Virus record (IMG/VR): IMGVR_UViG_3300002907_000005
Span: 1 to 31,834 of that record
DNA: 31,834 nt
Strand: one strand, 5' to 3'
From: a virus
Lineage: Duplodnaviria > Caudoviricetes
The notes under the pieces were generated by a model. That model ran no database searches, had not been told where the DNA came from, and was given only the letters and a program-made list of their open reading frames with translations. The position numbers and the translations under genes were made by a program. Of this stretch, positions 3,157-26,779 are shown one piece after another (the first letter of the stretch is position 1; each line of letters begins with the position of its first letter).

Positions 3157-3372
3157 CTATCTCCTCTTGGCCTTCGCTGCGGCGTGGGCGGCGCAGGCGT
3201 TGATAAACGTCTGCCATCTTGAGCGCTGCCAAGACTTAATGTGCAAATCTCCAATGCCATCCTCAGATAATCCTGGATAGCCCATGAGCGGCGCATCTAG
3301 AACATCATAAAGTCTCATCGCCGCCCGCTCCACCCTCCGCAGCGTGTTCCGGCTCTTGCGGGGAGAGGTCAT
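3157..3372 (-). CDS. Hypothetical protein
   Basis: ATGA-coupled 71-aa ORF with AAGGAG RBS. Confidence 0.55.
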   Translation of the reverse strand: MTSPRKSRNTLRRVERAAMRLYDVLDAPLMGYPGLSEDGIGDLHIKSWQRSRWQTFINACAAHAAAKAKRR

Positions 3373-3758
3373 CGCGGCTCCTTCGCGTCAGGCGGGAGGT
3401 CATATATCCATTGGCGAGCGATTTCACAGAGCGCAACGAACACGGCGTCCTTATCGCGCTCCAGTTGCCCAAGCTGCGCGTAAGGAACAAGGTCTGGATG
3501 CGTCTTGACCTCGCGGTCATACTTCTCGCCGAACGTCCAGCCCATCGCGAAATAAGCTTGCATCCAACTTCCGTGAAGCTCCTCGGGCGATGCGGAACGT
3601 TGCGGCCCGCATTGGCGCGAGATTACGGGCAGGAACTGACTGCGGAAGGCATCCTCACGTTCAGCCCATAGCACCGGAATGACGGGTGCACCAGCGGCCT
3701 GCGCGGCAAGCCTCGCGGCGTTATAGACAAATTCTGCACGGCGTTCATTCAAGATCAT
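3369..3758 (-). CDS. RyR-domain protein
   Basis: HGSW...GWTFGEKYD..KTHPDLVPYAQL...ERDKD matches the RyR repeat consensus; GGAGG RBS before ATG 3758. Confidence 0.8.
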   Translation of the reverse strand: MILNERRAEFVYNAARLAAQAAGAPVIPVLWAEREDAFRSQFLPVISRQCGPQRSASPEELHGSWMQAYFAMGWTFGEKYDREVKTHPDLVPYAQLGQLERDKDAVFVALCEIARQWIYDLPPDAKEPR

Positions 3759-3759
3759 C

Positions 3760-3972
3760 TCATCTCCTCCCTGTGCGCTTGCGCTTGAGAGCGGCGGCGC
3801 GTGTAATCTGCTCCGCAAGTTCCCATCCCACTTTGCGGACCGCCTCGTGCAAAATGTGTCCCGTAGCGTAGAGTCCGCGACGATGCGCCTCATGGTGAAT
3901 CGCTATCAGACGCGGAACGAAATCGTTGCGTGAGTCGTACAGCGCCCGCAAGGTCTTGGCGGAGGCGGTCAT
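3760..3972 (-). CDS. Hypothetical protein
   Basis: ATGA overlap with the exonuclease stop. Confidence 0.55.
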   Translation of the reverse strand: MTASAKTLRALYDSRNDFVPRLIAIHHEAHRRGLYATGHILHEAVRKVGWELAEQITRAAALKRKRTGRR

Positions 3973-6880: not shown

Positions 6881-7093
6881 TCATTTGATCCTCCAGATGC
6901 GCGCGCCGCCGTCAACGGCTCGCGAGGTGAATTTGCGATCCTTGGGCCAGTTTTGCGCCCCGAGCGAGCCTTTAGTGAAAATTGATTGCCCGACTTTGAG
7001 CGCACGAATCTTTCCTTGGAAGCTATTCGGGTCAGGCGCGCGACCGCCACTCCTTTTCGGTATCGGGATATTCGACTGTATCGTATATTTCAC
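6881..7093 (-). CDS. Small basic putative DNA-binding protein (IPIP...VGQS...RIWR type)
   Basis: Motif pattern common in phage early genes; AAGGAG RBS. Confidence 0.7.
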   Translation of the reverse strand: MKYTIQSNIPIPKRSGGRAPDPNSFQGKIRALKVGQSIFTKGSLGAQNWPKDRKFTSRAVDGGARIWRIK

Positions 7094-7315: not shown

Positions 7316-7344
7316 ACGATACTCGCCTGTTTCGAACTTGTCAA
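7316..7344 (-). promoter_or_regulatory. Leftward sigma70-type promoter
   Basis: TTGACA (7344-7339), 17 nt, TATCGT (7321-7316). Confidence 0.7.
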
Positions 7345-7381
7345 CGGTTATCGTTACATTGCGCCGCACAACGGATTCCGC

Positions 7382-7410
7382 TTGACTAGGACTTCTGCTT
7401 GTCGGATACT
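7382..7410 (+). promoter_or_regulatory. Rightward sigma70-type promoter
   Basis: TTGACT (7382-7387), 17 nt, GATACT (7405-7410); lambda PR/PL-like hexamers. Confidence 0.7.
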
Positions 7411-7419
7411 GTCGGCCTC

Positions 7420-7614
7420 ATGACCTATACTCAGCTTGTACGGCACTATGGGAGCGAAGCCGCTGCCGTCAGGGCGCTCGGCATACCGCAAAGCACCATC
7501 AACTTCTGGCGCAAGAACGGCATCCCACCTTGGCGTCAATCCCATATAGAACACGCAACGAATGGGAAACTCCAAACGAATAGATATCGTACGAAACGGG
7601 GCAACGACTCATGA
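7420..7614 (+). CDS. Cro-like HTH regulator
   Basis: MTYTQLVRHYGS.AAA.RALGI.QSTI..W...GIP..RQ..IE.AT.G.L is a P22 Cro/YdaS-like pattern; first gene of the rightward operon. Confidence 0.85.
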   Translation: MTYTQLVRHYGSEAAAVRALGIPQSTINFWRKNGIPPWRQSHIEHATNGKLQTNRYRTKRGNDS

Positions 7615-9065: not shown

Positions 9066-9584
9066 ATGAGGCGCGCGGACTTATCCAAGCGTCTGCGCGA
9101 TCAGCTTGCAGAAGCGCGTGCTGGCAATGCGTTCGTCGATGCCATATACGGCGATGGCAAGCCGCCGCAGGTTGTGTATCCGCCCGAGAAGCCGAAGCGG
9201 GAGCGGAAGGTGCGTGACGAGCTGGTGCCGAGCGAGCATCAGTCACAATGCGCGGTCATTTCGTGGTGGCGCTTGGCTCATGCAGGCTATGGGCTGCCAG
9301 AGTTTGCACTATTCGCCATCCCTAATGGGGGTGCACGTGATCCAATCACCGGCTCGCGGCTTAAAGCCGAGGGCGTACGACCAGGTCTCCCTGATTTGAT
9401 GCTGGCGGTGAAGCGCGGGCATTACGGCGGCCTTGTCATCGAGATGAAGAAGATCGGCAACCAGACTAACACCACGCAAAAGGAAGTGCTCGCTTACTTT
9501 GGCCGAGCCGGTTATGCGTGGGAAGTGTGCTGGACAGCGGACGCGGCAATCGCCACAATAAAGAGTTATCTCGCTGCATCGTAG
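9066..9584 (+). CDS. VRR-NUC domain nuclease
   Basis: EH..Q, LFAIPNGG.R, LKAEGV.PG.PDL, IEMK, Q...L......GY. Confidence 0.88.
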   Translation: MRRADLSKRLRDQLAEARAGNAFVDAIYGDGKPPQVVYPPEKPKRERKVRDELVPSEHQSQCAVISWWRLAHAGYGLPEFALFAIPNGGARDPITGSRLKAEGVRPGLPDLMLAVKRGHYGGLVIEMKKIGNQTNTTQKEVLAYFGRAGYAWEVCWTADAAIATIKSYLAAS

Positions 9585-9782
9585 TAACCTAGGGGGGCGC
9601 ATGACCAATGGCGATCTGATAGAGGAACTATCGCGCTATCCTAAACACTTATCCGTCAAAGTCGTGATAAGCGAAATCTGGTCATGCCTCAACTAGGTTG
9701 TAACCGTCCAAGGGAGATAGACGATGGGCCATAGGGCTAGAATTGCCCACTATCTAGGGCGAATCCTCAGGGAGGATTGGTC

Positions 9783-10355
9783 ATGCGCAATTGGACGTAT
9801 TGGGATTGGATTGCTTACACGGGACTCGCGTTCTCTGTTCTTATTCCTGCGGCTAAAGATGGACTAAAGGAACTTTCGGTGGGCGCTACTCCGCAATATC
9901 TATTGTCGCCAATCTGGACATTCCTGCCTGCGATCCTCTTTATTGGGGCCACTTGCATTCTGATTGCAAGGGCGTTTGGGTGGATTGGCGGTAATTCATC
10001 TCGTCTAGGTTCATGGTCTGACAAGATGGAACCTATAAACGAACGAACTTATCTTAATGAGACGATAGAAATAGACGGGAAAAGTTTTAACCGATGCAAA
10101 TTTACCAATGTGAAATTTTTCTATCGCGGGACGGGACCAGTCGCGGTTATTGAGTGCGAAATTCAAGGCTCGCTAGCCATCGAAACTGATAGCAAAGGCG
10201 CCCATACCTATTACATGCTATCGGAACGTCTCCAGAGTTCTTCTTCTCGGGTTGTTATCGGCACGCGCAATCCCGTCTCCGGCGAAATTAAAGTCTTTAG
10301 CACGATGACTCGCAACCCCGAGCAAGCCGATCAATCCGATAAGCAGAAACGTTAA
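9783..10355 (+). CDS. Passenger membrane protein (two N-terminal hydrophobic segments, C-terminal beta-rich domain)
   Basis: Two TM-like stretches; NETIEIDGKSF..C.F.NV resembles a pentapeptide/beta-helix segment; lower GC than the flanks. Confidence 0.75.
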   Translation: MRNWTYWDWIAYTGLAFSVLIPAAKDGLKELSVGATPQYLLSPIWTFLPAILFIGATCILIARAFGWIGGNSSRLGSWSDKMEPINERTYLNETIEIDGKSFNRCKFTNVKFFYRGTGPVAVIECEIQGSLAIETDSKGAHTYYMLSERLQSSSSRVVIGTRNPVSGEIKVFSTMTRNPEQADQSDKQKR

Positions 10356-10433
10356 CACGCTCTAATTGTCGCGCCGAAAATGCTAGGGTTCATTCAGCTA
10401 GTTTCGCGATTCATATGATTTCCTCTCAAGCAT

Positions 10434-10462
10434 ATTATTCACTTTAAGAGGATTGTAGTCAA
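10434..10462 (-). promoter_or_regulatory. Leftward promoter inside the element
   Basis: TTGACT (10462-10457), 17 nt, AATAAT (10439-10434), followed by GAGAGGA SD and ATG 10414. Confidence 0.5.
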
Positions 10463-10526
10463 GCATAAAGTTCAGTTTAGAAAATACTAAACGTAAGTCA
10501 TTGAACCTGTTTACCTTTTATAGGTA

Positions 10527-10556
10527 TTGACGGGTTAACTAGAAGAATCAGATAAT
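10527..10556 (+). promoter_or_regulatory. Rightward promoter inside the element
   Basis: TTGACG, 18 nt, GATAAT, with an AT-rich upstream region. Confidence 0.6.
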
Positions 10557-10562
10557 TACAGA

Positions 10563-10801
10563 CGCAAAAAGAGGGCGGACCGGGGGAGACTCCAACTCCC
10601 GACTTCCCGCTTAGTAGGCGGGCACTCTATGCGACTGAGTTACCGGCCCTCCAAATGCAGCACCACCACGACCTACGCGAGTGATCTTTTCTAGGGACTT
10701 GCTCGCGTAGGTCTTCTCTTTCATGGCCCGCGCACGGTGGGTTACCGGACGATCAGATGGGCTAGCTGGTTCGTGTCTCTAGGGCGCTTTAAGCGGGCCA
10801 T
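10563..10801 (+). ncRNA. Candidate structured ncRNA (cloverleaf-like domain plus two long stems)
   Basis: GAGGGC/GCCCTC (10571/10651) closes three hairpins; 12-bp perfect stem 10670-10681/10702-10713; 9-bp stem 10723-10731/10793-10801; no ORF of 60 aa or more. Confidence 0.5.
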
Positions 10802-11168
10802 CCGAACATTCTATCCCGCACCTTCCAGGCTAGTCCCGCGCTGTTTCAATCAAACTGAGGCATGACCCGAAATCTATGGCGCGCAAGACCTCGCGGGCGA
10901 CTTCAACGATGAATACCGGATCGAGTTGAATAGGGAGGATGCCATAGAAGCGGAGGCGGTCATCCACATGGGCAACTTCCTCCTGATCGAGAGCAAATAG
11001 CATGACCACCGCATCCTCAGCTGCCGCAATTCTCCCGCGCGTTCATGCGGCACATGCTGTAGAATCTTAGCTTGCCGGTGACGGCTCGGTTTAAAGCGCG
11101 AATGGGTTGATCGCCCCGCCACGCCGCAACGTGGCTAGCGCCCGAACAATTACCTTTGCGGAGGTTCT

Positions 11169-11810
11169 ACGAACTTCTATAAGCACTATCTTGGTGACTA
11201 TGCCAGGGACACGGCGCATCTCTCAGTCACCGAACATGGCGTCTATCGCCTCCTGATGGACCATTACTACGCGCTCCTCAAGCCTCTACCTGACGATTTT
11301 GCCTATCTTTGCCGCGTTGCAAAATGTCACTCAAGGCATGAAAAGGCCGCTTTGAGATCAATTCGAGATCAATTCTTCGACATCATCAACTGTCAACTTA
11401 GACACACACGCATAGACCAAGAAATCCTTAAATATCAACAAAACTCCGATACGAACCGTAAAGCAATCGAATCGAGATGGAATACGAACCGTAATACCAA
11501 GCCAGAAGCCAGAAGCCAGATACCAGAAGAATCTAAGTCAACACCATTAGCTTCGAGCCCTAACGGGCTCTCGGCTGGTCTCAATGGCAAAAGCGTTGCT
11601 TACATTCCGCTAGTGGACGGAACTGAATTCGGGCTTTCAGAAGGTGAGTTGGACGAGCTAAAGAAGGCCTACCCGGCTCTTGACTGCAAGCAGACAATGC
11701 TTGAAATCAGGGCATGGTGCATAGCTAATCCAACAAGGAAAAAGACCAGGAGAGGCGCAATGCGGTTCATCAATTCATGGATGGCTAGGCTTCAGGATCG
11801 GGCGCGCTGA
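11169..11810 (+). CDS. YdaU/DUF1376-family phage replication initiator-like protein (ACG start)
   Basis: (M)NFYKHYLGDYARDTAHLSVTEHGVYRLLMDHYY is the family N-terminus; C-terminal W..ANP.R.KT..G..RFI.SW; GGAGG precedes ACG; in-frame TAG at 11136. Confidence 0.85.
   Translation, partial: TNFYKHYLGDYARDTAHLSVTEHGVYRLLMDHYYALLKPLPDDFAYLCRVAKCHSRHEKAALRSIRDQFFDIINCQLRHTRIDQEILKYQQNSDTNRKAIESRWNTNRNTKPEARSQIPEESKSTPLASSPNGLSAGLNGKSVAYIPLVDGTEFGLSEGELDELKKAYPALDCKQTMLEIRAWCIANPTRKKTRRGAMRFINSWMARLQDRAR
11449..11527 (+). repeat. Iteron-like repeats within the replication gene (putative origin)
   Basis: ATACGAACCGTAA at 11449 and 11482 (33-bp spacing); AGCCAGA x3 near 11500-11520. Confidence 0.5.
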
Positions 11811-15093: not shown

Positions 15094-15256
15094 GTTGCTG
15101 ATGCAGCATCTGGTGCCTGCTGGTCCTGCGCCAGCGCAGAGGGTGGCGGGGGTGCTGCCTGGGAGGAGTCCATCGCAGGAGGATTTCCTGCTGCAGCAGT
15201 TGCGTGCTCAGAGCGATGTGAAGAGTCTGGAAGCGCTGTTCCAGAAGTACAAATGA
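15080..15256 (+). CDS. 58-aa hypothetical protein
   Basis: GAGGA RBS plus GTG; ATGA overlap with the epimerase gene. Confidence 0.45.
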   Translation: MSLLELLMQHLVPAGPAPAQRVAGVLPGRSPSQEDFLLQQLRAQSDVKSLEALFQKYK

Positions 15257-16122
15257 GGTACTTGGTTCTAGGCGCTTCGAGTTTCTACGGTTCGAATTTC
15301 TTGAAATTCCTGCAGGAAAAAGGTGAGGATGTCAAAGGACTCAGCCGCCCCGAGTTTGATCTGCGCAAGGATTTCATGGTCCCCAACGCAGATATCGTCG
15401 TCAACTTCATTGCCGAGAGTCTTGTTGCCGAATCTTGGGAAGACCCCGAGCGCTGGCTCGAAACGAACGTCGTATGCACCAACCGGCTATTTGAGGAAAT
15501 ACGCAAGAAGGAAATAGGCCTCTACATCCATATTTCCACGCCGGAAGTGTATGGGTCGAACACCCACTGGATGAAGGAGCGCCGCGACTACCTGCCGGCG
15601 ACGCCGTATGCGGTCTCCAGAGCCGCAGCGGATATGATGCTGCAAGCCTACTGGAAGGCTTACCGTTTCCCCATGATTATCACCAGGACTGCGAATATCT
15701 ATGGCAAAGGCCAACAAGATTTCAGGCTCATCCCGAAAGCGTTCTCCTTGCTGGCATCCGGAATGCCCTTTCCAGTCCGCGGGACTGGGCGTTCTCAGCG
15801 TAGCTTCATCCACGTTCGAGATGCAGCCCGAGCACTATATGTGCTTTCCAAAGACGGAAAAGCCGGAGAGCACTACCACATCTCGACCCGGAAGCAACAC
15901 TCGATCCTAGAAGTCGTGAGGATGATCTGCAAGATATTGGGTAAGGGCGAGGTTGAGTTTGAAAAAGACAGACTCGGGAAAGACCATGCCTACCTGCTGA
16001 ACTCGGACAAGATGAGGGCGTTGGGCTGGTACGATCAGATCGAGCTTTATGAGGGGTTAAGAGATTATGCAGATCATGGCGGTTTCCTTGAAGACAGCAG
16101 AAGATTTCTTGTCGAAACATGA
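15253..16122 (+). CDS. NAD-dependent epimerase/dehydratase (dTDP-glucose 4,6-dehydratase-like extended SDR)
   Basis: VLGASSFYG nucleotide-binding variant, AES.V..SW, ISTPEVYGS, PYAVSR (YxxxR), R..N.YG..Q, RSFIHV.D, DR.GKD..Y. Confidence 0.9.
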   Translation: MRYLVLGASSFYGSNFLKFLQEKGEDVKGLSRPEFDLRKDFMVPNADIVVNFIAESLVAESWEDPERWLETNVVCTNRLFEEIRKKEIGLYIHISTPEVYGSNTHWMKERRDYLPATPYAVSRAAADMMLQAYWKAYRFPMIITRTANIYGKGQQDFRLIPKAFSLLASGMPFPVRGTGRSQRSFIHVRDAARALYVLSKDGKAGEHYHISTRKQHSILEVVRMICKILGKGEVEFEKDRLGKDHAYLLNSDKMRALGWYDQIELYEGLRDYADHGGFLEDSRRFLVET

Positions 16123-16333
16123 AAGACACTATAAGGCTCCCGTTGAACCTGTCTGCGCCATAGGGGTTGGCGATGAAACCGGTCTCCATGGCGCAGCAGT
16201 CCTCGGAAGAAACGGCGAAGATGCAGAACTTGCCCATATCTATTGCGACGGAGCCTCCCAAGCCTATAGCCTCCTATACGGAGCTTGCTGGCGCACCCTC
16301 AAAGCCTTGGGGTACAAAAAGGCCGTTCTGTGA
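16067..16333 (+). CDS. Short XF1762/Mom-like GNAT-fold protein
   Basis: A..F...H.RH...P, G.A..GR, ..DG....S.LYGA.WR...ALGY pattern; shorter than typical members. Confidence 0.55.
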   Translation: MQIMAVSLKTAEDFLSKHERHYKAPVEPVCAIGVGDETGLHGAAVLGRNGEDAELAHIYCDGASQAYSLLYGACWRTLKALGYKKAVL

Positions 16334-16337
16334 GCGT

Positions 16338-16976
16338 CTGAGGGTTTTCGAGGAATATATCCTCGCGCATCTGGAAGAAATTCGCTGCCCAGTTCACCTT
16401 TCTCTAGGTCAGGAGCTTGTGTCAGAGGCTATCCATCGAAATATCCTTAAAGGCGATTGGCTATTCTCTACTCATAGAAACCATGGACATTATCTAGCGA
16501 AGGGCGGGAGCGAAGACAGGCTGTGGGATGAAATATGCGGTTTGGAGACTGGAATTAATCGCGGTATGGCAGGCAGTCAGTGTTTCTCCGATCCTGCGAT
16601 AAACTTTCACGCGAGTTCAATTGTCGGCGGATCGATCGGTATTGCCGTGGGCGCGGCTTTTTCGTTGAAGGGAAGCGGAAATCTGGTCGTGTGCTGCCTG
16701 GGAGATGCCGCCACAGAGCAGGGGGTCTTCTGGGAAGCATTGAATTTTTCTGCATTGAAAAAACTCCCCATTTTTTTTATCTGCGAAAATAATCGATTGT
16801 CCATTGATGTCCCCATTGTGGAGCGTCAGACTGTCGGCATAACCCGGAGGGTCAAGACCTGGATCGAGATAGCGCCGACCATAAAACAAGGTTTCGAGAT
16901 GGGCAGAATAGCCCCGATGTTTCACGAAGCCTTTGTAACCAGAGAGGGGAAGCATTGCTATTTTCAGAAGAAATAA
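16338..16976 (+). CDS. ThDP-dependent dehydrogenase E1 alpha-like subunit (shortened)
   Basis: R.FEE, PVHLSLGQE, STHRNHGHYLA, SSIVGG, GDAATEQG...CENN ThDP motif. Start uncertain: CTG 16338, or ATG 16221 overlapping the previous gene. Confidence 0.88.
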   Translation: MRVFEEYILAHLEEIRCPVHLSLGQELVSEAIHRNILKGDWLFSTHRNHGHYLAKGGSEDRLWDEICGLETGINRGMAGSQCFSDPAINFHASSIVGGSIGIAVGAAFSLKGSGNLVVCCLGDAATEQGVFWEALNFSALKKLPIFFICENNRLSIDVPIVERQTVGITRRVKTWIEIAPTIKQGFEMGRIAPMFHEAFVTREGKHCYFQKK

Positions 16977-17461
16977 ATAAGGCTCTGGACGAAGCCCTGA
17001 AGGATGAGAGGACACTGCTATGCGGACAACTCGTGAACTACGGTCATTCAGCCCTAACCCGTGGGCTGGAGAAGAAATATCCGAATCAAGTGGTGACCTA
17101 TCCGGTGGCGGAGAATTTGATGAATGCGAGTGCGATGGGGATGAGCTTGGCGGGCAAGAGACCGATTGTATTGCATGAGCGCTTCGACTTCGCCTTAGTT
17201 GGAATGGACGCACTTATCAACCATATTGCGATCTGGCCGAAGAAATGCGCAATGAAATTGCCTTTGGTGATGATGATAGTGGTGGGACACGGTAAAGGTC
17301 AGGGACCGCAGCAGAACAAGGATTTCACTGGATGGTTCAGGGAAATGGAGGGCTGGACTGTCCTTGAGCCGCGTCTTCCTGGATCGGCCTCCGTTGCTGT
17401 TCACGCTGCGACTCTTGCCGAGTCTCCGGTAATGCTCATTATCCATCGGGAGCTGTATTGA
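16955..17461 (+). CDS. ThDP-dependent E1 beta-like subunit (pyrimidine-binding domain only)
   Basis: KYP..V..YPVAEN...A.G.SLAG.RP...R.DF......N, GQGPQ; lacks the transketolase C-terminal domain. Confidence 0.85.
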   Translation: MLFSEEINKALDEALKDERTLLCGQLVNYGHSALTRGLEKKYPNQVVTYPVAENLMNASAMGMSLAGKRPIVLHERFDFALVGMDALINHIAIWPKKCAMKLPLVMMIVVGHGKGQGPQQNKDFTGWFREMEGWTVLEPRLPGSASVAVHAATLAESPVMLIIHRELY

Positions 17462-18057
17462 TCTTTCCCGATGGTTCGATGGCCGGATATAGCTGGGAGA
17501 ACGATCCGAAGCGCTTTGCCTTCACCTGCGCCAGATACAAATTCATTGCGAAGATGGTAGAGGGCATGGACAAGGTGCTGGAGGTCGGCTGTAATGATGG
17601 GTTTTTCTCACGCATCGTCAGACAGCATGTAAATCATCTGGTAGGAATGGACAATGACCCGAAGGCTGTTGAACTCGCCAAGGAGATGAACTCTGAGAAA
17701 TGGAACATCTACTTTCAGCAGTGGAGCATACTGGATTCGACAGTGTTGTCTCAGCCAGGGTTCGATGCTGTGTATTGCCTGGATGTATTCGAGCACATAA
17801 AGGAGGAGGATGTTCTTCTACAAAATCTCGTATTTTTTGCTCCTATGTGCATTATCGGCACTCCTAGCCTTGAGTCTCAAATATATGCTTCTCCGGTATC
17901 TAAAGCGGCGCATGTTAATACGGTTACGAAATCACAACTCCGAACCAAGATGAAGAAATATTGGAAGCATGTTATTTGCTTCGGGATGCAGGACGAGGTT
18001 CTTCATACCGGCAAAGACGAAATGTGCAATTATATTTTCGGTCTTGGGTTCAAGTGA
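17458..18057 (+). CDS. Class I SAM-dependent methyltransferase
   Basis: RYKF..KM, VLEVGCNDG, D.DP, FDAVYCLDVFEHI. Confidence 0.88.
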   Translation: MIFPDGSMAGYSWENDPKRFAFTCARYKFIAKMVEGMDKVLEVGCNDGFFSRIVRQHVNHLVGMDNDPKAVELAKEMNSEKWNIYFQQWSILDSTVLSQPGFDAVYCLDVFEHIKEEDVLLQNLVFFAPMCIIGTPSLESQIYASPVSKAAHVNTVTKSQLRTKMKKYWKHVICFGMQDEVLHTGKDEMCNYIFGLGFK

Positions 18058-19115
18058 AACTCCCTCGTCCTGAGCCTGCCCTCGGCATCTTGGCCTACGC
18101 CCAAGAGCGCGATCTGTGCGTCAACATGGATCGCAGGAAGGCCGATAACTGGCGCTCCTATATCCAGACTAAGAATCTAGGCTGGCGCTCGACGATTGGC
18201 TATTTACCGATCAAGCTCGATATCGAAAACTGCTCACGCTGCAATTTCGCGTGCACTATGTGCGCGGTATCGAAGTGGGCGCACGGCAAGCGCGCAGACG
18301 ACATGACGCTGGAGGAATTCAAGGCGCTCATCGATGAGCAATACGGTTTGGTCGAGATCAAACTGAACGGCCTGGGCGAGGCTTTGATGCAGGGGGATGA
18401 TTATTTCGAGATGGTCAAGTATGCGAGGGCCAAGCATATCTGGGTGCGGATGACCACAAACGCCTCGCTCCTGCATCTACGGGACAACTACAAAAAACTC
18501 ATCGACTCCGACGTGAACGAAATAGATATCTCGATAGACGGCGCAGACCAAAAGACATTCGAGGGGATCAGGATACAGTCTGACTTCGATCAGGTCGTAA
18601 AGAACGCGAAGCAACTGAACGATTGCTGCGCTGGGACGAGGACGAAGATGTGGACGCTGGTGCAGAAGGCCAATTATACCAATTTGGCCGAACATCTTCA
18701 TCTGGCTGACTATATGGGATTCAAGAATGTCGTGTTCTCCATGAATATGCACGGATGGGCCGACCCTGAATTGAAAAAGCGCAACGACGCCGAAATGGTC
18801 AATCTGAGCGAAGACTATATTTCGCATCTTATGGAGACCGCCAAAAACAAGAGAATTAAACTCGCGTTCTGGGATGTAAATGATAAATTCGATACCGATA
18901 TCATGCAGCACCGCTGCCCGTGGCCCTTCGAACGGGCCGTAGTGACCTCCGATCTGAGGACTGTTCCTTGCTGCATGATCGGCGATCCTGATAAATTCGA
19001 GATCGGGAAAGGCAAGACATTCCTGGTGAACTGGAAATCCGAGGAATATCGTGATTTCAGGCAGGCCCATATAGACGGAAATATTCCAGACGTCTGCAAA
19101 GCCTGCTACAAATGA
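18054..19115 (+). CDS. Radical SAM protein with SPASM/twitch domain
   Basis: CNFACTMC (CxxxCxxC), G.GE, TTNA, ISIDG; C-terminal CPWPF...VPCC...C..C; GTGA overlap. Confidence 0.92.
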   Translation: MKLPRPEPALGILAYAQERDLCVNMDRRKADNWRSYIQTKNLGWRSTIGYLPIKLDIENCSRCNFACTMCAVSKWAHGKRADDMTLEEFKALIDEQYGLVEIKLNGLGEALMQGDDYFEMVKYARAKHIWVRMTTNASLLHLRDNYKKLIDSDVNEIDISIDGADQKTFEGIRIQSDFDQVVKNAKQLNDCCAGTRTKMWTLVQKANYTNLAEHLHLADYMGFKNVVFSMNMHGWADPELKKRNDAEMVNLSEDYISHLMETAKNKRIKLAFWDVNDKFDTDIMQHRCPWPFERAVVTSDLRTVPCCMIGDPDKFEIGKGKTFLVNWKSEEYRDFRQAHIDGNIPDVCKACYK

Positions 19116-20260
19116 AGGTGCTGATTCTCGGCGGAGGATTCGCCGGAACGACGGCAGCTTATCTTCTCCAGAAAGAAGGCTATGAAGTTACCCTCATGGA
19201 GAAGGAGCCTCATCTGGGCGGCGGGTGCAGGACTTTCTTCTATGGCGGTCATCCTTTTCAATACGGCCCGAGGGTCTATTATGGATATAGCAAAAAAGTC
19301 TTTGACTGGGTTAATTCGTTCACGCCAATTCGCAGGTTTCCTTTTGAACTTAGAACCTTTGTTGAAAGCGATCAACGCTTCTACCACTACCCGATACATG
19401 AGGACGACTTGCCCTCAATGCGGGCATACGCACAGATTAAATCTGAACTCGCAGCCAGAGACAACTCCAAGGAACCCAAGGATTTCGAGGAATACTGGAT
19501 CAACCGAGTAGGGCGAACGCTCTACGATATGTTCGTCAACAACTACTCTAAAAAGATGTGGATGATCGATGACAACCGCATCTTCGACATCTTCAAATGG
19601 AGCGCCAAGGACAAGCCGATAGAGTCAGGGCCGAAGGGGACTTATAAGGATTCGATCATCGGCTATCCGTATGCCCATGATGGATACAACGCCTATTTCG
19701 ATGTGATGACGGAGAATGTCGAAGTTAGATTGAACGATTCATATTCTTGGTATGACAGGCACACTTTATCTTGCGAGGATTTCGATCTTTACATTAACAC
19801 AATTCCTATTGATGAATTTTTGGGATATGAATTTGGAGAGCTTCCATATGTTGGAAGAGATTTTCAAGTCATCATTCTGCCCTGCAAGCAAGTTTTTCCA
19901 GCGGATATCCGCTTCTGCCACTATGCGGGTTCAGAGCCGCACACCAGAATAACGGAGTTCAAAAAACTGACCTATCATGAGTCTGAAGATACCCTCTTGG
20001 TCATTGAGACCCCTTCGCATAAAAACAAGCTATATCCCTATCTCACCAAAGCAAATATGGCTACCGTGGGGAAATACCTGGATTCCCTACCACAAAACGT
20101 TTATTCCATTGGAAGGCTTGGCACGTACAAATATTCGACGATTGAGCAAACTATCTGCCAAGCATTTGAAGTGGTATCGAAGATTACGGGCAAGTCCAAT
20201 CCAATGGCAGATCAATTCTTTGGCATCGGCGACACTGCATTGATGAAAGATAGAAAGTGA
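19112..20260 (+). CDS. UDP-galactopyranose mutase (Glf)-like flavoenzyme
   Basis: GGGFAG FAD motif, LGGGC, YGP, F...YSKKMW, P..GY, TRITEFK, YP, GRLGTYKY. Confidence 0.85.
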   Translation: MKVLILGGGFAGTTAAYLLQKEGYEVTLMEKEPHLGGGCRTFFYGGHPFQYGPRVYYGYSKKVFDWVNSFTPIRRFPFELRTFVESDQRFYHYPIHEDDLPSMRAYAQIKSELAARDNSKEPKDFEEYWINRVGRTLYDMFVNNYSKKMWMIDDNRIFDIFKWSAKDKPIESGPKGTYKDSIIGYPYAHDGYNAYFDVMTENVEVRLNDSYSWYDRHTLSCEDFDLYINTIPIDEFLGYEFGELPYVGRDFQVIILPCKQVFPADIRFCHYAGSEPHTRITEFKKLTYHESEDTLLVIETPSHKNKLYPYLTKANMATVGKYLDSLPQNVYSIGRLGTYKYSTIEQTICQAFEVVSKITGKSNPMADQFFGIGDTALMKDRK

Positions 20261-21060
20261 CTAAAACGGTTCTATACGATCTATCGGTAATGCCTACTAC
20301 CTTTGATTTCGCCTGTACGGCAGTCATGGCGAAGACTTTGGGCTATGAGGAAATCAGGTTCGTCGTGGATAAGCCCATGACGGAATGGAAGTATCCGGCG
20401 AAGATAGGCTGGAGGCGTTGGGCGAATATCCTAGTTCCACTGTGCGAGTTGGCCGACCTCAGTTTCTCTGTGGGCCGCGAGATTCCCGGTGATACATTGG
20501 GTTATACGACCGGGAATGTCGAGGAGATATTCAAACGAACCGGCAAGATCACGAAATTGAGGCCAGTGGAACTGCCGGATAAGTCAGGTTATATAACAAT
20601 CACTCTAAGGCAATCATTCAGGAATGAATGGCGTAATTCAAGTCCCGATTGGCTCAAGGTCGCCGAATGGCTAAAATCAGAGGGTGAGGAAGTCTATATC
20701 CTCGAAGAATCTGAAGAAGTCCCTATCGCTATTGAAAAGCGCATGGGCATTTATTGTAATGCCAAGATGAATCTGGCCGTCGGTAATGGCCCGATGGTTC
20801 TATGTTGGCTATCCGAGGCCCCATATCTGACTTTCCAGCTTCCAAAGGGCCCGGAGAAGGAATACACCGCCTTGGTGGGACAGTGGGATCGCATGGGATT
20901 TCCAGTAGGCTCTCAACTGAGCTTTAAAAATGAAAGACAGGAAATCGTCTGGGATACTGATGACTATGAGATCGTTAAGACCCACTGCGAAAAGCACTTG
21001 TTTGACAAGAACTTAAAGAAAGGCGCAAACTCGCGCGCTAATGAACGGCATACGGCTTGA
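20257..21060 (+). CDS. Hypothetical protein, possibly GT-B glycosyltransferase-like
   Basis: Last gene of the sugar cluster; ITITLR..RN...W...A..L and A..NL.V.NGP..L loosely recall GT9-type C-terminal domains. Confidence 0.55.
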   Translation: MTKTVLYDLSVMPTTFDFACTAVMAKTLGYEEIRFVVDKPMTEWKYPAKIGWRRWANILVPLCELADLSFSVGREIPGDTLGYTTGNVEEIFKRTGKITKLRPVELPDKSGYITITLRQSFRNEWRNSSPDWLKVAEWLKSEGEEVYILEESEEVPIAIEKRMGIYCNAKMNLAVGNGPMVLCWLSEAPYLTFQLPKGPEKEYTALVGQWDRMGFPVGSQLSFKNERQEIVWDTDDYEIVKTHCEKHLFDKNLKKGANSRANERHTA

Positions 21061-22492
21061 GCCAAAGCAAGGTCAAGCTTTCCAAACATCCGCAACAGAA
21101 GTTCTCTACGGCGGCGCTGCCGGTGGAGGTAAAAGCTACCTCCTCAGAGTCTCAGCGATCAGATGGTGCATGGAGATACCCGGTATCCAGGTCTATTTCT
21201 TTCGTCGCACCTTGCCCGATCTTCGAGATAACCATTTAAGGGGTCCGACCTCGTTTTTTGTCATATTGGCTGATTTACTGCAAAGCGAGAACATCAAATA
21301 TCGGGCGCAGGAAAATGAATTCGAGTTCTGGAACGGTGCGATCCTGCATCTTTGCTATTGCGACTCCGAAAATGACGTGGAAAAGTACCGCGGGGCGGAA
21401 ATCCATGTGCTTTGCATAGATGAACTGACACACTTTTCCGAATATCAATATCGTTTCTTGAGGTCTCGCGTCCGTAGGGCCGGTCTCGAAGTGCCAGAGA
21501 AATACAAGAAAATGCTCCCGAGGATAGAAGCAGCTTCAAACCCTGGATCGATAGGTCATGCCTGGGTCAAGAGAACATTCGTAACGCCCAAGCCGTTCAA
21601 TGAGGTCTGGAGAGCTCCTTCGGAAGAAGGTGGGATGTTGCGGCAGTTCATCCCGGCGAAATTGTCAGATAATCCGCATTTGACCAACGATGATCCAGAC
21701 TATGCAAACCGCCTCAGAGGGCTTGGAACCAGCAGTCTGGTACGGGCAATGCTCGAAGGAGATTGGGACATCATCGCCGGTCAGGCTTTTGAGAAGCTGC
21801 GTCGAGAAACCCATTGTATCGATCCTCTATCTCCCCCTGAAGATTGGCTCGTCTTCGGTTCGTTTGACTGGGGTAGCTCCCGTCCGTTTAGTTATGGTCT
21901 GTGGTGCATCTCCAACGGAGAAAAACTCCCAGACGGAAGGTGCTATCAAGCCGGGGCAATGATCCGGTACGACGAGTGGTATGGCTGGAGCGGTAAAGCC
22001 AATGAGGGCTTGAGAATGGACGTGCGGGAGGTCGCCCAAGGCATCTTCAAACTGGAAAATGAGCGCGTTCCTGCTTACAGGATCGGCGATTCGAGCATGT
22101 GGGATGTGGATGGGGGACCTTCCATTGCGGAGCGCTTCAACAATAACGGTATTGTGATGCGGCCTGCGCCCAAAGGTAAAGGCTCGCGGCATAACGGCTA
22201 TGTGGAAGTGCGAAACAGAATCTCAGGAAATGACGACGGTCCGATGCTGTATGCCACCAAGAATTGTCATGCTGGCTTCTGGAGGACGATGCCGGAACTG
22301 GTGATGGATGAGCACCAATACGGTATGAAGTCTGAGCAGATAGACACCGATCAGGAAGACCATGTATCGGACGAAGTGATGTATGCCTGCATGAGCCGTC
22401 CATGGATGAGGCATATTGAGCCGGTAGTAGCGGTGCCTGAAAGATGGCTGGCATTCGAGGAAGAGGAGGCCGAAACGTGGCGGACAACATAA
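21041..22492 (+). CDS. terL: Terminase large subunit
   Basis: Walker A GGAAGGGKS, Walker B LCIDE, SNPG coupling motif, nuclease SFDWG and EDHVSD. Confidence 0.95.
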   Translation: MNGIRLEPKQGQAFQTSATEVLYGGAAGGGKSYLLRVSAIRWCMEIPGIQVYFFRRTLPDLRDNHLRGPTSFFVILADLLQSENIKYRAQENEFEFWNGAILHLCYCDSENDVEKYRGAEIHVLCIDELTHFSEYQYRFLRSRVRRAGLEVPEKYKKMLPRIEAASNPGSIGHAWVKRTFVTPKPFNEVWRAPSEEGGMLRQFIPAKLSDNPHLTNDDPDYANRLRGLGTSSLVRAMLEGDWDIIAGQAFEKLRRETHCIDPLSPPEDWLVFGSFDWGSSRPFSYGLWCISNGEKLPDGRCYQAGAMIRYDEWYGWSGKANEGLRMDVREVAQGIFKLENERVPAYRIGDSSMWDVDGGPSIAERFNNNGIVMRPAPKGKGSRHNGYVEVRNRISGNDDGPMLYATKNCHAGFWRTMPELVMDEHQYGMKSEQIDTDQEDHVSDEVMYACMSRPWMRHIEPVVAVPERWLAFEEEEAETWRTT

Positions 22493-24750
22493 CAGATGAG
22501 TTAGAAGTAGATCATGGGCTTTTGATACAGTGGGTCAATGAAGCCGAAGATGCCACCGATGATTCCCGCGCACTTTCCGAGAAATGCCGAGATTATTATG
22601 ACTCGAAGCAATGGACGGACCCAGAGATAAAGAAGCTCAAGACCCAAAAACAAGCACCGACAGTCTCCAATCGCATCAAGCCGAAAATTGACAGCTTGAT
22701 GGGAATGGAGACTACGAATAGAACGACCGCAAAAGCATTTCCTAGGACTCAAAAGCATGAAAAGGCTTCCGAAGCCGCCACGGAAGCTATCAGGTTCGTA
22801 TTGCAGGACAATACTTTTGAGAAGACCCGCTCGTCAGCTTTCGAGAATATGTTGATCGAAGGAATTGGCGGATGTGAGGTCATAGTCAAGCCGGTAAAAG
22901 ATGACTTCAAGGTCATCATCAATCAGATTCCTTGGGATAGGATGTTTTTTGATCCTCATTCAAGACGGAAAAATTTTTCCGATGCGCGTTACTTGGGCCA
23001 AATCGTATGGATGGATTTCGACGAAGCTCTGGAACTCTATCCAGAAGGAGAAGACCATCTTAATACTATGTCTTCTGGCTCAACTACCTTCGATGACAAG
23101 CCTCGCTGGCTAGACTCCAAGAGGAAAAGAGTAAAAATCGTTGAGATGTACTACGGCAAGGATGGCGACATTTGGTATTCGTGTTTTACCCGTTCAGGGT
23201 TCCTGAAAGAACCGAAGATATCACCCTACAAGGATGAAGAAGACAATACCGAATGGCCGTATGAATTCGCTTCTCCGTTTGTCGATAGAGAAGGTGGGCG
23301 CTACGGTGCTGTGAGACAGCTTTTGGATATGCAGGACGAGATAAACAAGAGGAGGTCGAAGGCACTGCATTTGATGTCAGTCAGGCAAGTGAGGGGAGAA
23401 CGCGGCGCTGTTGAGGACGTGAATAAGGCCCGCCAAGAACTTGCGAAACCCGACGGATATATTGAGACTACACCAGGCATGGAATTCGAGGTCCTGAAGA
23501 CCGGCGACATGGCGGCGGCTCAGTTCAACCTCTTGACTGAGGCCAAGCAGGAAATAGATGCGGTGGGGGCGAATGCGGCTCTCATGGGGAAAACTACGAA
23601 TCAGGATGCTTCCGGGCGCGCATTGCTCGCCAGAGAAGCAGCTGGCAAGACTGAGTTAGCCCCAGTTTTCGATACACTCAAAGGGTGGGATTACAAAGTC
23701 TATAGGAAGGTCTGGAACAGAATCCACCAGTATTGGAAGGCTGAGAAGTGGATTCGCGTCACCGATGACGAGCAAAATCTACGCTGGGTCGGATTGAATA
23801 AGCCCATGACCAAGGGCGAGGTCGTCCTACAGAATGCGCAGGAGCAAAATATTCCACCAGAGCAGTTGCAGCAACTACAGCAGCAAATAGATGCGAATCC
23901 TGCAATGAAGGAAATCGACCATACGCATAATGATGTCGTGGAAATGGACGTTGATATTGTCTTGGATGACGTTCCAGACGCCATTACTTCACAGATCGAG
24001 GACTTCCAGACATTGGGTGAGATGGTCAAATCGGGCTTCCCAATTCCTCCGCTGGCTGTAATCGAAGCCTCACCGCTCACGAACAAGACCAGGATTCTGA
24101 AGATGATGAAGGAACAGCCGCAAGTTCCTCCGCAACTTCAGAAGCAGATGGAAAAGATGCAGGAAGACCTCAAAAAGGCGAATGAAGAGAATCAACAACT
24201 GAAAGCTGGAACTCAGGCGAAGATGGCGCAGATTGATGCTGATAAGCAAGCATCTGGCGTGAAGATGCAACTTCACCAGCAGGAAACCGCAGCGAGCCTT
24301 GCTCACGAACGCGAAGCCAATGCCGCCAGATTGCAATTTGAGCGCGAGAAAGCCGCTCAGGAGTTGCAACTACAGAGAGAGAAGGCGCAGCAGGAAGCCG
24401 ACCTTCTTGTCTGGAAGGCGAAGTTGGAGGCCGAGACCAAAGTATTGGTCGCGCAAATCGCAGCCAAACAAGCTGGGGAGCAAGCATTACTCGAAGCTGA
24501 AACTGCCGCCGATGTCAATTTCGTCAAGGATGAGGGCGGCGCGACTGGCACCAAGCCAAAGATCAGAGATGTTATAGCTAGTCTCGCCGATGGCCTAAAG
24601 ACCATGCAGGACACCCACTCGAAAGGCATCCAGGAGCTTGCCAAGTCGCACCAGCAGTCCACTGAGAAACTTCTAGCCCATATCTCAAAGCCTCGGACTA
24701 TCACGGCGAAGAGTTCCAATGGCACGACGCTTACGGCAACCACGCATTAA
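22477..24750 (+). CDS. Portal protein (P22-like) with long C-terminal coiled-coil
   Basis: DYYD..QW, N.I...I....G.E, G.VR.L.D.Q..INKRRSK, SG.A; follows terL; GGAGG plus GTG 22477. Confidence 0.9.
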   Translation: MADNITDELEVDHGLLIQWVNEAEDATDDSRALSEKCRDYYDSKQWTDPEIKKLKTQKQAPTVSNRIKPKIDSLMGMETTNRTTAKAFPRTQKHEKASEAATEAIRFVLQDNTFEKTRSSAFENMLIEGIGGCEVIVKPVKDDFKVIINQIPWDRMFFDPHSRRKNFSDARYLGQIVWMDFDEALELYPEGEDHLNTMSSGSTTFDDKPRWLDSKRKRVKIVEMYYGKDGDIWYSCFTRSGFLKEPKISPYKDEEDNTEWPYEFASPFVDREGGRYGAVRQLLDMQDEINKRRSKALHLMSVRQVRGERGAVEDVNKARQELAKPDGYIETTPGMEFEVLKTGDMAAAQFNLLTEAKQEIDAVGANAALMGKTTNQDASGRALLAREAAGKTELAPVFDTLKGWDYKVYRKVWNRIHQYWKAEKWIRVTDDEQNLRWVGLNKPMTKGEVVLQNAQEQNIPPEQLQQLQQQIDANPAMKEIDHTHNDVVEMDVDIVLDDVPDAITSQIEDFQTLGEMVKSGFPIPPLAVIEASPLTNKTRILKMMKEQPQVPPQLQKQMEKMQEDLKKANEENQQLKAGTQAKMAQIDADKQASGVKMQLHQQETAASLAHEREANAARLQFEREKAAQELQLQREKAQQEADLLVWKAKLEAETKVLVAQIAAKQAGEQALLEAETAADVNFVKDEGGATGTKPKIRDVIASLADGLKTMQDTHSKGIQELAKSHQQSTEKLLAHISKPRTITAKSSNGTTLTATTH

Positions 24751-25397: not shown

Positions 25398-26779
25398 TGG
25401 CCTCAGTCAGACACGCAACATCGGTTCAAGGTGCCGATGATCCTGGAAAGTCGGTACAGGCGGCACAATGGAATGAAGACCATACGCTTGTAGGCATCCC
25501 CGATCAGGCGTCATTAGATGCCGTCAGCGCAGCTGTCTCTGTTGTAGCGGCGAATCTTTCTGCATTGAGCGTCACAGTCGCCGGAATTGGCGGTGGCGAG
25601 GTTCATCCCACTTCGGCTGAGTTTGTCAGCCTTCAAGCTGACTTCTCCACTCTGAGCATTCAGGTCACGAACGTTTCCGCTGCCGTAAGCGTCGTGGCGG
25701 CAAATCTCTCCAATGAGATTTCCCTGCGTTCTTCGCAGATCAACACTGCATCCGGGGCCGTTAGTACGCTTTCTTTGGCCGTTTCAGTCGTAGCTGCTGC
25801 TCTTTCAAATGAAACCTCGGCACGTATAGCGGGCGACAACGCAGCTTCTGGAGCCGTGAGCACTCTAAGTCTTGCTCTTTCGGCTGAAACTGCCGCGAGG
25901 ATAGCGGGGGATAACACAGCCTCCGGCGCAGTGAGTACACTCAGCCTCGCAGTTTCGGTGGTTGCAGCTGCGCTCTCGAATGAAATTTCTCTCAGATCAT
26001 CCCAGATCAATACAGCTTCTGGTGCTGTAAGTACATTGTCTCTAGCTGTATCTGTGGTAGCGGCGGGACTGTCAAACGAAATCTCCGCAAGGAATGCGAC
26101 AAGCAATGCTATTAGCACTATGAGTCTTGCCGTTTCAGCAGCAGAGGCCCACGCCGCCGCCGCTTCCGCTGCTGTCAGCACTTTGAGCCTTGCGGTTTCG
26201 GTTGTGGCCGCGCAGCTTTCTGCTACTAGCGTTCAAGTAACGGCAGTCTCTGCTGCGGTGTCAGTGGTCGCTGCTGGCTTGAGCGCACTGAGCATTCAAG
26301 TCTCTACCCTTTCGGCGCAGATGACCTCACTTGTCGCATCCAAGATCGTAATGCTTGGAGCACAGACAATATCGGTATCGGCTCTAACCAATGTTTCCGG
26401 GCAAGCATTCTCGGTAGGGGCGAATAATACCTACGCTTTCAAGTATATGATTATTTACCAAGCCGCCTCGACTGCTACAGGGTTGGGAGTGAGCGTGACC
26501 TTCCCTGGGATGAAGACATTTGCGGCTACTGCCTATATCACTTCTGGTGCGACCGGAACTGCGAACACATTCTCTGGGCCTATAACGGCCTCTGGAACTA
26601 AGATTCAAGCTCTAAGCTGTCAGACTGCCGCGACGGACTTTTACGCCGTGATAGAGGGAGCTTTCCAGGTATCTACTTCAGGCACCTTGCAGCTTCAGGC
26701 CGACTCTGGAGTTGGCGGGACTTCTGCTCAGGTCATCATCAGGCCAGGAACATTCGGAATGGTATGGAGGGGCGCTTGA
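25397..26779 (+). CDS. Fibre-like protein with Ser/Ala/Val coiled-coil repeats and C-terminal beta domain
   Basis: N-terminal WN.DH; repeats AVSTLSLAVSVVAAALSNE; E..AR..GD; C-terminal GTLQLQ. Confidence 0.75.
   Translation: MASVRHATSVQGADDPGKSVQAAQWNEDHTLVGIPDQASLDAVSAAVSVVAANLSALSVTVAGIGGGEVHPTSAEFVSLQADFSTLSIQVTNVSAAVSVVAANLSNEISLRSSQINTASGAVSTLSLAVSVVAAALSNETSARIAGDNAASGAVSTLSLALSAETAARIAGDNTASGAVSTLSLAVSVVAAALSNEISLRSSQINTASGAVSTLSLAVSVVAAGLSNEISARNATSNAISTMSLAVSAAEAHAAAASAAVSTLSLAVSVVAAQLSATSVQVTAVSAAVSVVAAGLSALSIQVSTLSAQMTSLVASKIVMLGAQTISVSALTNVSGQAFSVGANNTYAFKYMIIYQAASTATGLGVSVTFPGMKTFAATAYITSGATGTANTFSGPITASGTKIQALSCQTAATDFYAVIEGAFQVSTSGTLQLQADSGVGGTSAQVIIRPGTFGMVWRGA

Follow-up and report, generated by a model that had tools for sequence, protein, structure and literature searches.

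An IS1-like element in a temperate-type phage carries a tRNA gene that joins an arginine-type body to a serine-codon anticodon and is faced by a conserved promoter-like site

Architecture of the locus

The DNA analysed here, hereafter the window, is a whole virus record of 31,834 nucleotides (IMGVR_UViG_3300002907_000005; Duplodnaviria, Caudoviricetes). It represents a temperate-type phage: recombination genes occupy its left part, and it also has a replication region and P22-like portal, terminase and capsid genes. L036/L120/L145/L395/L492 contain a longer copy of this phage. Inspection of the region left of the replication genes revealed a transposase-less IS1-like element (Table 1), in which we found both end features of the IS1 family, 25-bp terminal inverted repeats and an 8-bp target duplication. 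The stretch 9560-11000 is missing in related phage contigs (joints 9559>10999 and 9574>11003). A complete element, L163, shares this end type and has, besides an 8-bp duplication, both a transposase and a GCU tRNA.

The transposases of L451, L163 and L208 have IS1 as their best NCBIfam model, but with 48.8, 67.0 and 94.8 bits they stay below its cut-off of 100; named transposase relatives at 63-69% identity are annotated as IS1 family transposases. Named relatives of the linked transposase are few and belong to Beta- and Gammaproteobacteria, a mere hint at the host. The window element retains the transposase promoter, which reads TTGACA-17-AATAAT in the three homologues L407, L429 and L451, together with the ribosome site and the first three codons; the rest of the gene is lost. 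Its passenger ORF has a weak match to phrog_26297, and a search for relatives of this ORF returned the ORF itself as the only match. By its anatomy, the tRNA unit described below is a passenger of the transposon and not a phage regulator.

Table 1. Features of the element and its insertion site (positions in the window)
Feature	Position	Strand	Details and basis
Phage gene (67 codons)	9601..10997	plus	split by the insertion; halves 9601-9679 and 10876-10997
Target-site duplication, left copy	9672..9679		8 bp, CGAAATCT
IS1-like element	9680-10867		1,188 bp, transposase-less; inverted ends and target duplication
Terminal inverted repeat, left	9680..9704	plus	25 bp, begins GGTCATGCCTCA
Passenger ORF	9777..10355	plus	~190 aa; convergent with the lost transposase
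Transposase remnant	10394..10414	minus	start and three codons as in homologues, then divergence and a stop; alignment with L407, L429, L451
Transposase promoter-like site	10434..10462	minus	TTGACT-17-AATAAT
Promoter-like site	10527..10556	plus	TTGACG-18-GATAAT (10527, 10551), facing the 3' end of the tRNA gene
Predicted antisense RNA	10563..10721	plus	~159 nt; start and end inferred from promoter and terminator
tRNA gene (domain 1)	10576-10649	minus	Arg-type body, anticodon ACU at 10613-10615; Rfam, ARAGORN
Domain 2	10670..10721	plus	intrinsic-terminator-like hairpin with U-rich tail; z -6.0 and covariation
Domain 3	10723..10801		variable DNA past the terminator-like hairpin; no conserved RNA domain
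Lone -10-like hexamer	10808..10813	minus	TAGAAT, without a good -35; sole candidate sense promoter inside this copy
Terminal inverted repeat, right	10843..10867	minus	25 bp
Target-site duplication, right copy	10868..10875		8 bp

A tRNA gene with a mismatched body and anticodon

The initial annotation had read positions 10527-10801 as a promoter-driven RNA of three structured domains, the first of them cloverleaf-like and "not a tRNA". The motifs it listed are in place (TTGACG, GATAAT, all domain 1 stems, the domain 2 stem and a 9-bp domain 3 stem at 10723-10731/10793-10801), and no ORF of at least 60 aa overlaps the region, which holds one small frame, a 42-aa GTG ORF starting at 10737. The minus strand of domain 1, however, is a tRNA by both Rfam and ARAGORN: it matches RF00005 with 56.2 bits (gathering score 29, E 1e-9), the very outcome named beforehand as removing the novelty, and ARAGORN gives the anticodon as ACT. 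The T-loop had been missed because it lies on the other strand and carries G56 for C56 (matched by C19 for G19), and the ACTCCAA loop proposed as a target-binding sequence is the reverse complement of that T-loop.

The minimum free energy fold of the tRNA is the cloverleaf, with z -2.0 on the minus strand; the plus-strand fold of domain 1 has z -1.2 (200 shuffles each). The gene specifies a perfect 7/5 cloverleaf with a 5-nt variable loop and a swapped elbow, C19:G56 (10631 and 10593); CCA is not encoded, and a run of five T follows the gene. The identity set given for tRNA-Arg consists of A20, C35, position 36 (pyrimidine/U36) and A/G73 (PMC9976931), and by these criteria it is complete here, with A20 (10630), C35, U36 and G73. 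SerRS, as described in PMC5389517, requires a long variable arm, an element of tRNA-Ser identity that is missing from this tRNA. By these marks, the tRNA has an arginine-type body with a serine-codon anticodon (ACU).

Alanine must be considered as well. Of the tRNA-Ala criteria G3.U70, G1-C72, G2-C71 and A73, the first three are present but position 73 is G; G3.U70 alone is stated to be able to confer alanine acceptance (PMC9976931). Among individual bodies the closest, at 72%, belongs to an Arg tRNA, and mean body identity is 0.60 with Ala tRNAs and 0.57 with Arg tRNAs, so alanine could be the amino acid carried, given this best mean identity together with G3.U70.

An anticodon-blind search for the swapped elbow yielded 104 viral loci and 61 distinct, well-formed tRNAs, of which 30 are tRNA-Arg. 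A20 occurs in 29 of these 30 versus 1 of the 31 others, and the sole non-Arg exception also has a Ser anticodon. The 30 phage tRNA-Arg (anticodons UCU, CCU, ACG, UCG) share the D-loop G18-C19-A20 and the T-loop G56 with the window tRNA and are the likely source of its body; they differ in that their anticodons are cognate, the flanks obtained contain no IS1-like transposase, and antisense promoters are not in excess. tRNAs with the swap (L001-L104) are common in phage contigs, about half of them being Arg, and no account of C19:G56 in phage tRNAs was found in the literature searched.

Bacterial TadA is reported to edit tRNA-Arg(ACG) alone, and unmodified A34 tRNAs can, according to the same source, read all four codons of a box (PMC3711424); the ACU anticodon would therefore read AGU, AGC and perhaps AGA/AGG. 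Variation within one study (contigs of runs X4-X6) affects T-loop positions 59/60 and D-loop position 16 of domain 1, with other variants in the promoter spacer and the linker and none in stems or anticodon. A micro-inversion of the tRNA between 6-bp flanking repeats was considered and rejected, as its orientation is identical in L407, L429 and L451; no strand-switch joint was seen in runs X3-X6 or among the phage-contig joints listed.

A promoter-like site and a covarying hairpin frame the gene

The plus-strand promoter-like site agrees with the consensus at 10 of 12 letters. Between positions 7000 and 12500 there are 7 sites of this quality vs 3.9 +/- 1.9 in shuffles, so the consensus match alone is weak and conservation is needed to trust the site. 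All three homologues (L407, L429 and L451) keep both hexamers and the 18-nt spacing, with varying spacer letters.

Domain 2 consists of a perfect 12-bp stem (10670-10681/10702-10713) followed by TTCTCTTT, and its fold scores z -6.0 on the plus and -4.9 on the minus strand (200 shuffles each). Comparison across four sequences (three distinct, about two lineages) revealed that all 17 predicted pairs are kept, 4 of them by compensatory change, and that none is broken. Three U.G pairs are functional on the plus strand only, which is also where the U-rich tail lies. Because the promoter hexamers and spacing are conserved and domain 2 covaries with plus-only pairs, a plus-strand transcript of the region is likely, and it would end at domain 2. 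Computed fold and duplex make the predicted 159-nt RNA a perfect complement of the whole tRNA. If both RNAs are made, the predicted layout would put a small RNA on either strand of the locus, the arrangement that defines type VIII toxin-antitoxin systems.

Of the promoter-driven structured RNA originally proposed, the promoter-like site, the terminator-like hairpin and a small non-coding unit stand, and the three-domain RNA of 240 nt does not. Covariation, the check suggested at the time, was seen at 4 of the 17 pairs of domain 2; domain 3 varies among homologues, L407 and L429 diverging from the window after ~10728 and the X4-X6 contigs after 10745-10747. The fold of domain 3 is within chance (z -1.2 plus, -0.9 minus; 200 shuffles each) and it has no Rfam match, and domain 3 was rejected as a conserved RNA on these grounds and on the divergence of homologues. 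The search for loop targets returned no trans target above chance in the window: complementary 9- to 12-mers were fewer than in shuffles, and local 7-8-mers were at shuffle level. The guide-RNA reading finds no support, the cloverleaf being the complement of a tRNA gene and no trans target exceeding chance. An antitoxin-like RNA, also among the early suggestions, is the reading that stays live, with a conserved plus-strand promoter and hairpin framing the unit.

Distribution of the tRNA class and its linkage to transposases

The promoter-tRNA-hairpin unit recurs in the metagenome contigs L407, L429 and L451, each with an IS1-like transposase that begins ~165 nt beyond the tRNA on the same strand. 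In L407 and L429 a passenger-gene promoter lies upstream of the tRNA; the window copy would depend on a weak site or flanking read-through. More widely, Arg-type bodies with ACU or GCU recur at 40 viral loci and at 120 genome loci in many phyla (~170 estimated), and the C19:G56 type at 105 metagenome loci. The latter comprise 91 distinct copies, 78 with seven acceptor pairs and 55 with encoded CCA. Because an anticodon-specific pattern was used to gather this ACU/GCU set, part of its uniformity follows from the search itself. Among A34 short-arm tRNAs in viral contigs, ACT accounts for 2 of 120 sampled and AGT for 89, and ACU is therefore no dominant A34 type.

An IS1-like transposase match was found at 77 of 222 distinct loci of the tRNA class; at 67 of these loci it lies downstream, on the same strand as the tRNA. 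For the C19:G56/ACU type the proportion is 54/84, and 18 of the 30 misses have less than 600 nt downstream. No such transposase was found near the 104 anticodon-blind C19:G56 viral loci, 80 of which have 1.5-kb flanks and the rest possibly less. The IS-linked copies (n = 61) keep full stems, encode CCA in 42/61 and carry G3.U70 in 19/61, and their tRNA occupies a fixed slot, 93-280 nt ahead of the start of the transposase. Many phage copies not linked to a transposase (L106, L107, L110, L127, L142 and others) have an unpaired top of the acceptor stem, with D, anticodon and T arms intact.

Starting from the transposase alone, a slot tRNA was present at 1 of 22 viral loci (the other 21 without a tRNA) and at 2 of 13 genome loci (one already known; 10 without a tRNA). 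The slot tRNAs found in this way, at L493 and L516, are both mismatched between anticodon and body. That of L493 has a GCU anticodon on an Arg-like body. That of L516 (2552-2624, minus) has the anticodon AGC, no G3.U70 and U73, and is accompanied by the same downstream hairpin and an antisense promoter-like site.

A search of 401 genomes from the phylum of G004 revealed no further copy of the exact unit. An exact-match pattern built for the leader of the other subgroup also returned 0/401; it is too strict, missing the copy of G001 itself. A search of annotated phages for the unit gave only three weak tRNA-Asn matches. L198, L515 and L527 derive from the unpublished G001, L198 being one of the 34 loci of the largest cluster and L515 the same place; the conclusions are independent of all three. 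L208, L213, L214, L243 and 30 more loci have a conserved structured leader of ~128 nt between tRNA and transposase, without an Rfam match in the members scanned, which contains the antisense promoter-like site and a hairpin able to hide the transposase start.

The upstream ORFs scanned (41 of 49) included one Gp49/RelE-like, one weak ribbon-helix-helix, four helix-turn-helix and one TilS-domain match, with none for 34; with so few toxin-antitoxin matches, a link to protein toxin-antitoxin neighbours is weak. We also rejected a "private code" in which the transposase would need arginine at AGY: the AGY share of serine codons is 0.40/0.41 in tRNA-linked transposases vs 0.39 in those without a tRNA, and the six invariant Arg columns (excluding one group-specific column) are never AGY. 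At transposase Arg columns, AGY codons number 13 and TCN codons 5; most of these belong to a single clade, in a column where His and Lys occur as well.

Antisense promoters are enriched at transposase-linked tRNAs

Promoters and terminators were scanned with simple consensus and hairpin rules made for this analysis, the promoter threshold being 9 or more of 12 letters. An antisense promoter between tRNA and transposase was found at 25 of 62 transposase-linked loci vs 1.5 expected or, counted by sequence cluster, at 11.1 of 17 vs 0.8. The controls gave 4/62 vs 3.6 expected for other phage tRNAs and 8/135 vs 4.0 for same-class tRNAs without a transposase. Antisense promoter and terminator occur together in 5 of 15 IS clusters and in 0/62 and 2/135 of the respective controls. 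Terminators taken alone are less distinctive: upstream of the tRNA they appear on the antisense strand in 8.1/15 clusters and on the sense strand in 5.5/15, and antisense ones also in 39/135 non-IS copies. Across the 34 loci that form the largest cluster, the antisense site mostly reaches only 7/12 and adjoins the transposase start; it could be an IS10-style pOUT. New here are the anatomy of the element and this controlled count of antisense promoters.

Comparison with known systems

Natural tRNAs whose anticodon is at odds with their identity have been described as allo-tRNAs, which act as missense suppressors and are toxic in E. coli (Mukai et al. 2017, PMC5389517). They and irregular-tRNA polycistrons occur in soil bacteria beside transposon and toxin-antitoxin genes, so the window tRNA resembles them in both its anticodon-identity mismatch and its transposon neighbourhood (PMC5389517). 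In structure the two differ: allo-tRNAs have an 8/4 or 9/3 acceptor branch, a long variable arm and Ser/Ala identity, whereas the window tRNA has a 7/5 branch, a short arm and Arg identity (PMC5389517). The direction of the mismatch is also reversed, arginine identity being placed on serine codons, and no antisense unit was found in the sections of that paper covered (PMC5389517). The window tRNA has a predicted one. Identity with allo-tRNAs was rejected on the 7/5 branch and the short arm.

The tRNAProX family (tRNAProA/ProT/ProN) likewise miscodes with A34 anticodons, impairing growth when expressed and bringing a benefit under antibiotic stress (PMC10404621). The window tRNA shares A34 with it, but tRNAProX has proline identity and an adjacent ProRSx gene, and the text describing it makes no mention of a transposase (PMC10404621); the window tRNA has no linked synthetase gene and an IS1-like element as carrier. 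Identity with tRNAProX was rejected, no synthetase being found among the 43 window ORFs or the neighbours scanned. In its predicted action, however, the window tRNA would resemble both allo-tRNAs and tRNAProX.

For the pairing of an RNA toxin with an RNA antitoxin, CreTA is presumably a fitting comparison beside type VIII SdsR/RyeA. In the type VIII system, the two RNAs come from opposite strands of one locus (PMC8610362). SdsR, however, is a base-pairing sRNA and not a tRNA (PMC8610362), while the window locus has a tRNA gene and a predicted antisense RNA. Transporter IS carry passenger genes, and Pout is an internal outward promoter near the transposase start (PMC9330008). The known Pout RNAs treated there pair with transposase mRNA (PMC9330008), whereas the antisense RNA of the window group would cover the tRNA, without overlapping the transposase transcript from its own promoter.

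A published IS-borne tRNA with Arg body and Ser anticodon, or an anti-tRNA antitoxin, was not found in open-licence main texts. The supplements of PMC5389517 cover irregular tRNAs of soil origin that neighbour transposon genes, and relatives may be among them.

A predicted miscoding tRNA and its putative antisense brake

Collectively, sequence and comparison establish the tRNA, its identity marks, the element ends and duplication, the promoter motif, the covarying hairpin and the antisense-promoter enrichment. The anatomy alone we hold to be nearly certain. Our main reading, to which we give a probability of roughly 0.5, is that the tRNA is predicted to miscode serine codons as arginine and is likely held down by the 159-nt cis-antisense transcript.

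According to this reading, read-through from upstream (from the passenger-gene promoter in L407 and L429; from a weak site or flanking transcription in the window) would yield the tRNA, which would be cut out, gain CCA and be charged by ArgRS, with AlaRS as a possible competitor through G3.U70. The copy in the window may be largely silent, because only the lone -10 box could drive its sense transcription. Where expressed, the unmodified A34 tRNA would read AGU and AGC (perhaps AGA/AGG), and arginine would partly replace serine across the proteome. Natural miscoding tRNAs are toxic in, or arrest, E. coli in published accounts (PMC5389517; PMC10404621), which gives a reason for a brake on such a tRNA. 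The facing promoter would lower tRNA levels through polymerase collision and pairing with the precursor, and we propose that the host thereby tolerates the element. Were the antisense RNA lost, or degraded under stress, miscoding would set in, in the manner of toxin-antitoxin pairs made of two RNAs.

An alternative that we consider unlikely, yet deserving of serious weight, holds that the facing promoter is an ordinary IS part, either a divergent passenger promoter or a pOUT. On this account the tRNA was captured in reverse and is weakly expressed, domain 2 stops a stray transcript, and the antisense RNA has no dedicated job. At tRNA-less transposase relatives, a divergent promoter is present at 6 of 18 distinct loci (two of the six near-duplicates; 1.3 expected over 19) and a divergent ORF starts within 140 nt at 11 of 18, so the promoter may be an IS feature that was inherited and did not arise for the tRNA. 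Antisense promoters of the Pout kind have been described for IS10, IS30, IS200 and IS1999 (PMC9330008), and the window copy has neither a transposase nor a clear sense promoter. Against this, the promoter of the window group is oriented away from that of the transposase and is unable to cover transposase mRNA; no ORF is under its control, yet promoter and terminator are kept with compensatory changes; and it is commoner at tRNA-bearing elements (9/15 cluster representatives).

It is improbable, in our estimate, that the tRNA shape serves processing or as a decoy and does not decode, with RNase P and 3'-trimming separating passenger and transposase transcripts or the fold drawing tRNA-cutting or tRNA-sensing proteins. 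The fixed slot before the transposase, the frequency of the swapped elbow in phage tRNAs and the broken acceptor stems of many non-IS members would fit such a role, as would the allo-tRNAs that are charged but unused, or inactive (PMC5389517). The IS-linked copies, however, keep full stems and mostly CCA, and a normal Arg anticodon would be processed free of risk, yet a transposase accompanies none of the 104 anticodon-blind viral loci.

We give still less credence to a benign or useful decoder, in which unmodified A34 reads the four AGN codons and supplies rare AGA/AGG arginine, or alanine charging causes mild Ser-to-Ala replacement. The restriction of TadA to tRNA-Arg(ACG) and the four-codon reading of A34 (PMC3711424), and the alanine acceptance that G3.U70 alone can confer (PMC9976931), agree with it. 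GCU versions (10/61 IS-linked, 22/40 viral), however, are not expected to read AGA/AGG, G3.U70 is missing in 42/61 IS-linked copies, and four-way reading would still misread AGU/AGC.

P4 CI and P1/P7 C4 RNA are small cloverleaf-like RNAs downstream of a promoter in temperate phages, processed by RNase P, whose loops are complementary to targets both upstream and downstream within their own transcript. That the plus strand encodes a stand-alone cloverleaf regulator of this kind with trans phage targets, as first suggested, is largely refuted: a conserved promoter-like site and terminator do lie on that strand, and in this copy it can fold as a four-way junction ending in CCA-like letters, but this end is not kept in L407, L429, L451 or X4-X6, the invariant tRNA letters sit on the minus strand, the unit travels with the IS while related phages lack it, and the plus strand has no Rfam match below E 4.9, none to P4 CI/P1 C4 up to E 10 (10300-11300), no loop targets, complementary 9- to 12-mers below shuffles, and no immunity or antirepressor operon. 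Identity with P4 CI/P1 C4 was rejected, the cloverleaf being the complement of a true tRNA.

If the preferred reading, a miscoding tRNA restrained in cis, is correct, transposons can spread regulated changes in the reading of the genetic code, and "tRNA-Ser" annotations of these genes name the wrong amino acid. Few families of natural miscoding tRNAs are known; this locus ties a predicted one to a mobile carrier and a specific control mechanism, a facing promoter and a terminator. A bolder generalization, which we regard as doubtful, is that a widespread group of IS1-like transposons would carry an RNA-only addiction or defence module, composed of a miscoding-tRNA toxin (serine codons read as arginine) and a cis-encoded anti-tRNA antitoxin, with a slot open to other mismatched tRNAs. 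Such a toxin-antitoxin type would have a working tRNA as its toxin and would be spread over many phyla and phages by transposition. If the anatomy alone holds, it defines a recurrent IS passenger not found in the literature searched.

Further observations in the phage genome

In several late genes (17961-20260, 22444-24750 and 26764-28110), AGY makes up a small share of serine codons, for example 4/33 in the portal gene. The DUF1376 replication gene (11169-11810, plus) seems to start at ACG, 4 nt past GGAGG and 29 codons before the first ATG; L146 has GTG there, and a non-standard start that limits the initiator is possible. Before this gene, the non-coding stretch ~11000-11165 (plus) is matched by many contigs of other soil runs, has no Rfam match up to E 10 and may be a leader RNA of the phage itself.

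Back-to-back promoter-like sites lie at 7316-7614 with a short Cro-like ORF (7399-7614, judged by eye) and no repressor-sized gene between them. A RyR-domain protein is encoded in the early left region (3369-3893, minus). The late region (15253-21060 and 26764-28110) contains a cluster of sugar- and cofactor-type enzymes, comprising an epimerase, an E1 dehydrogenase/transketolase-like pair, a methyltransferase, a radical SAM protein, a UDP-galactopyranose mutase and an MptE-like protein, which possibly serves virion or DNA glycosylation.
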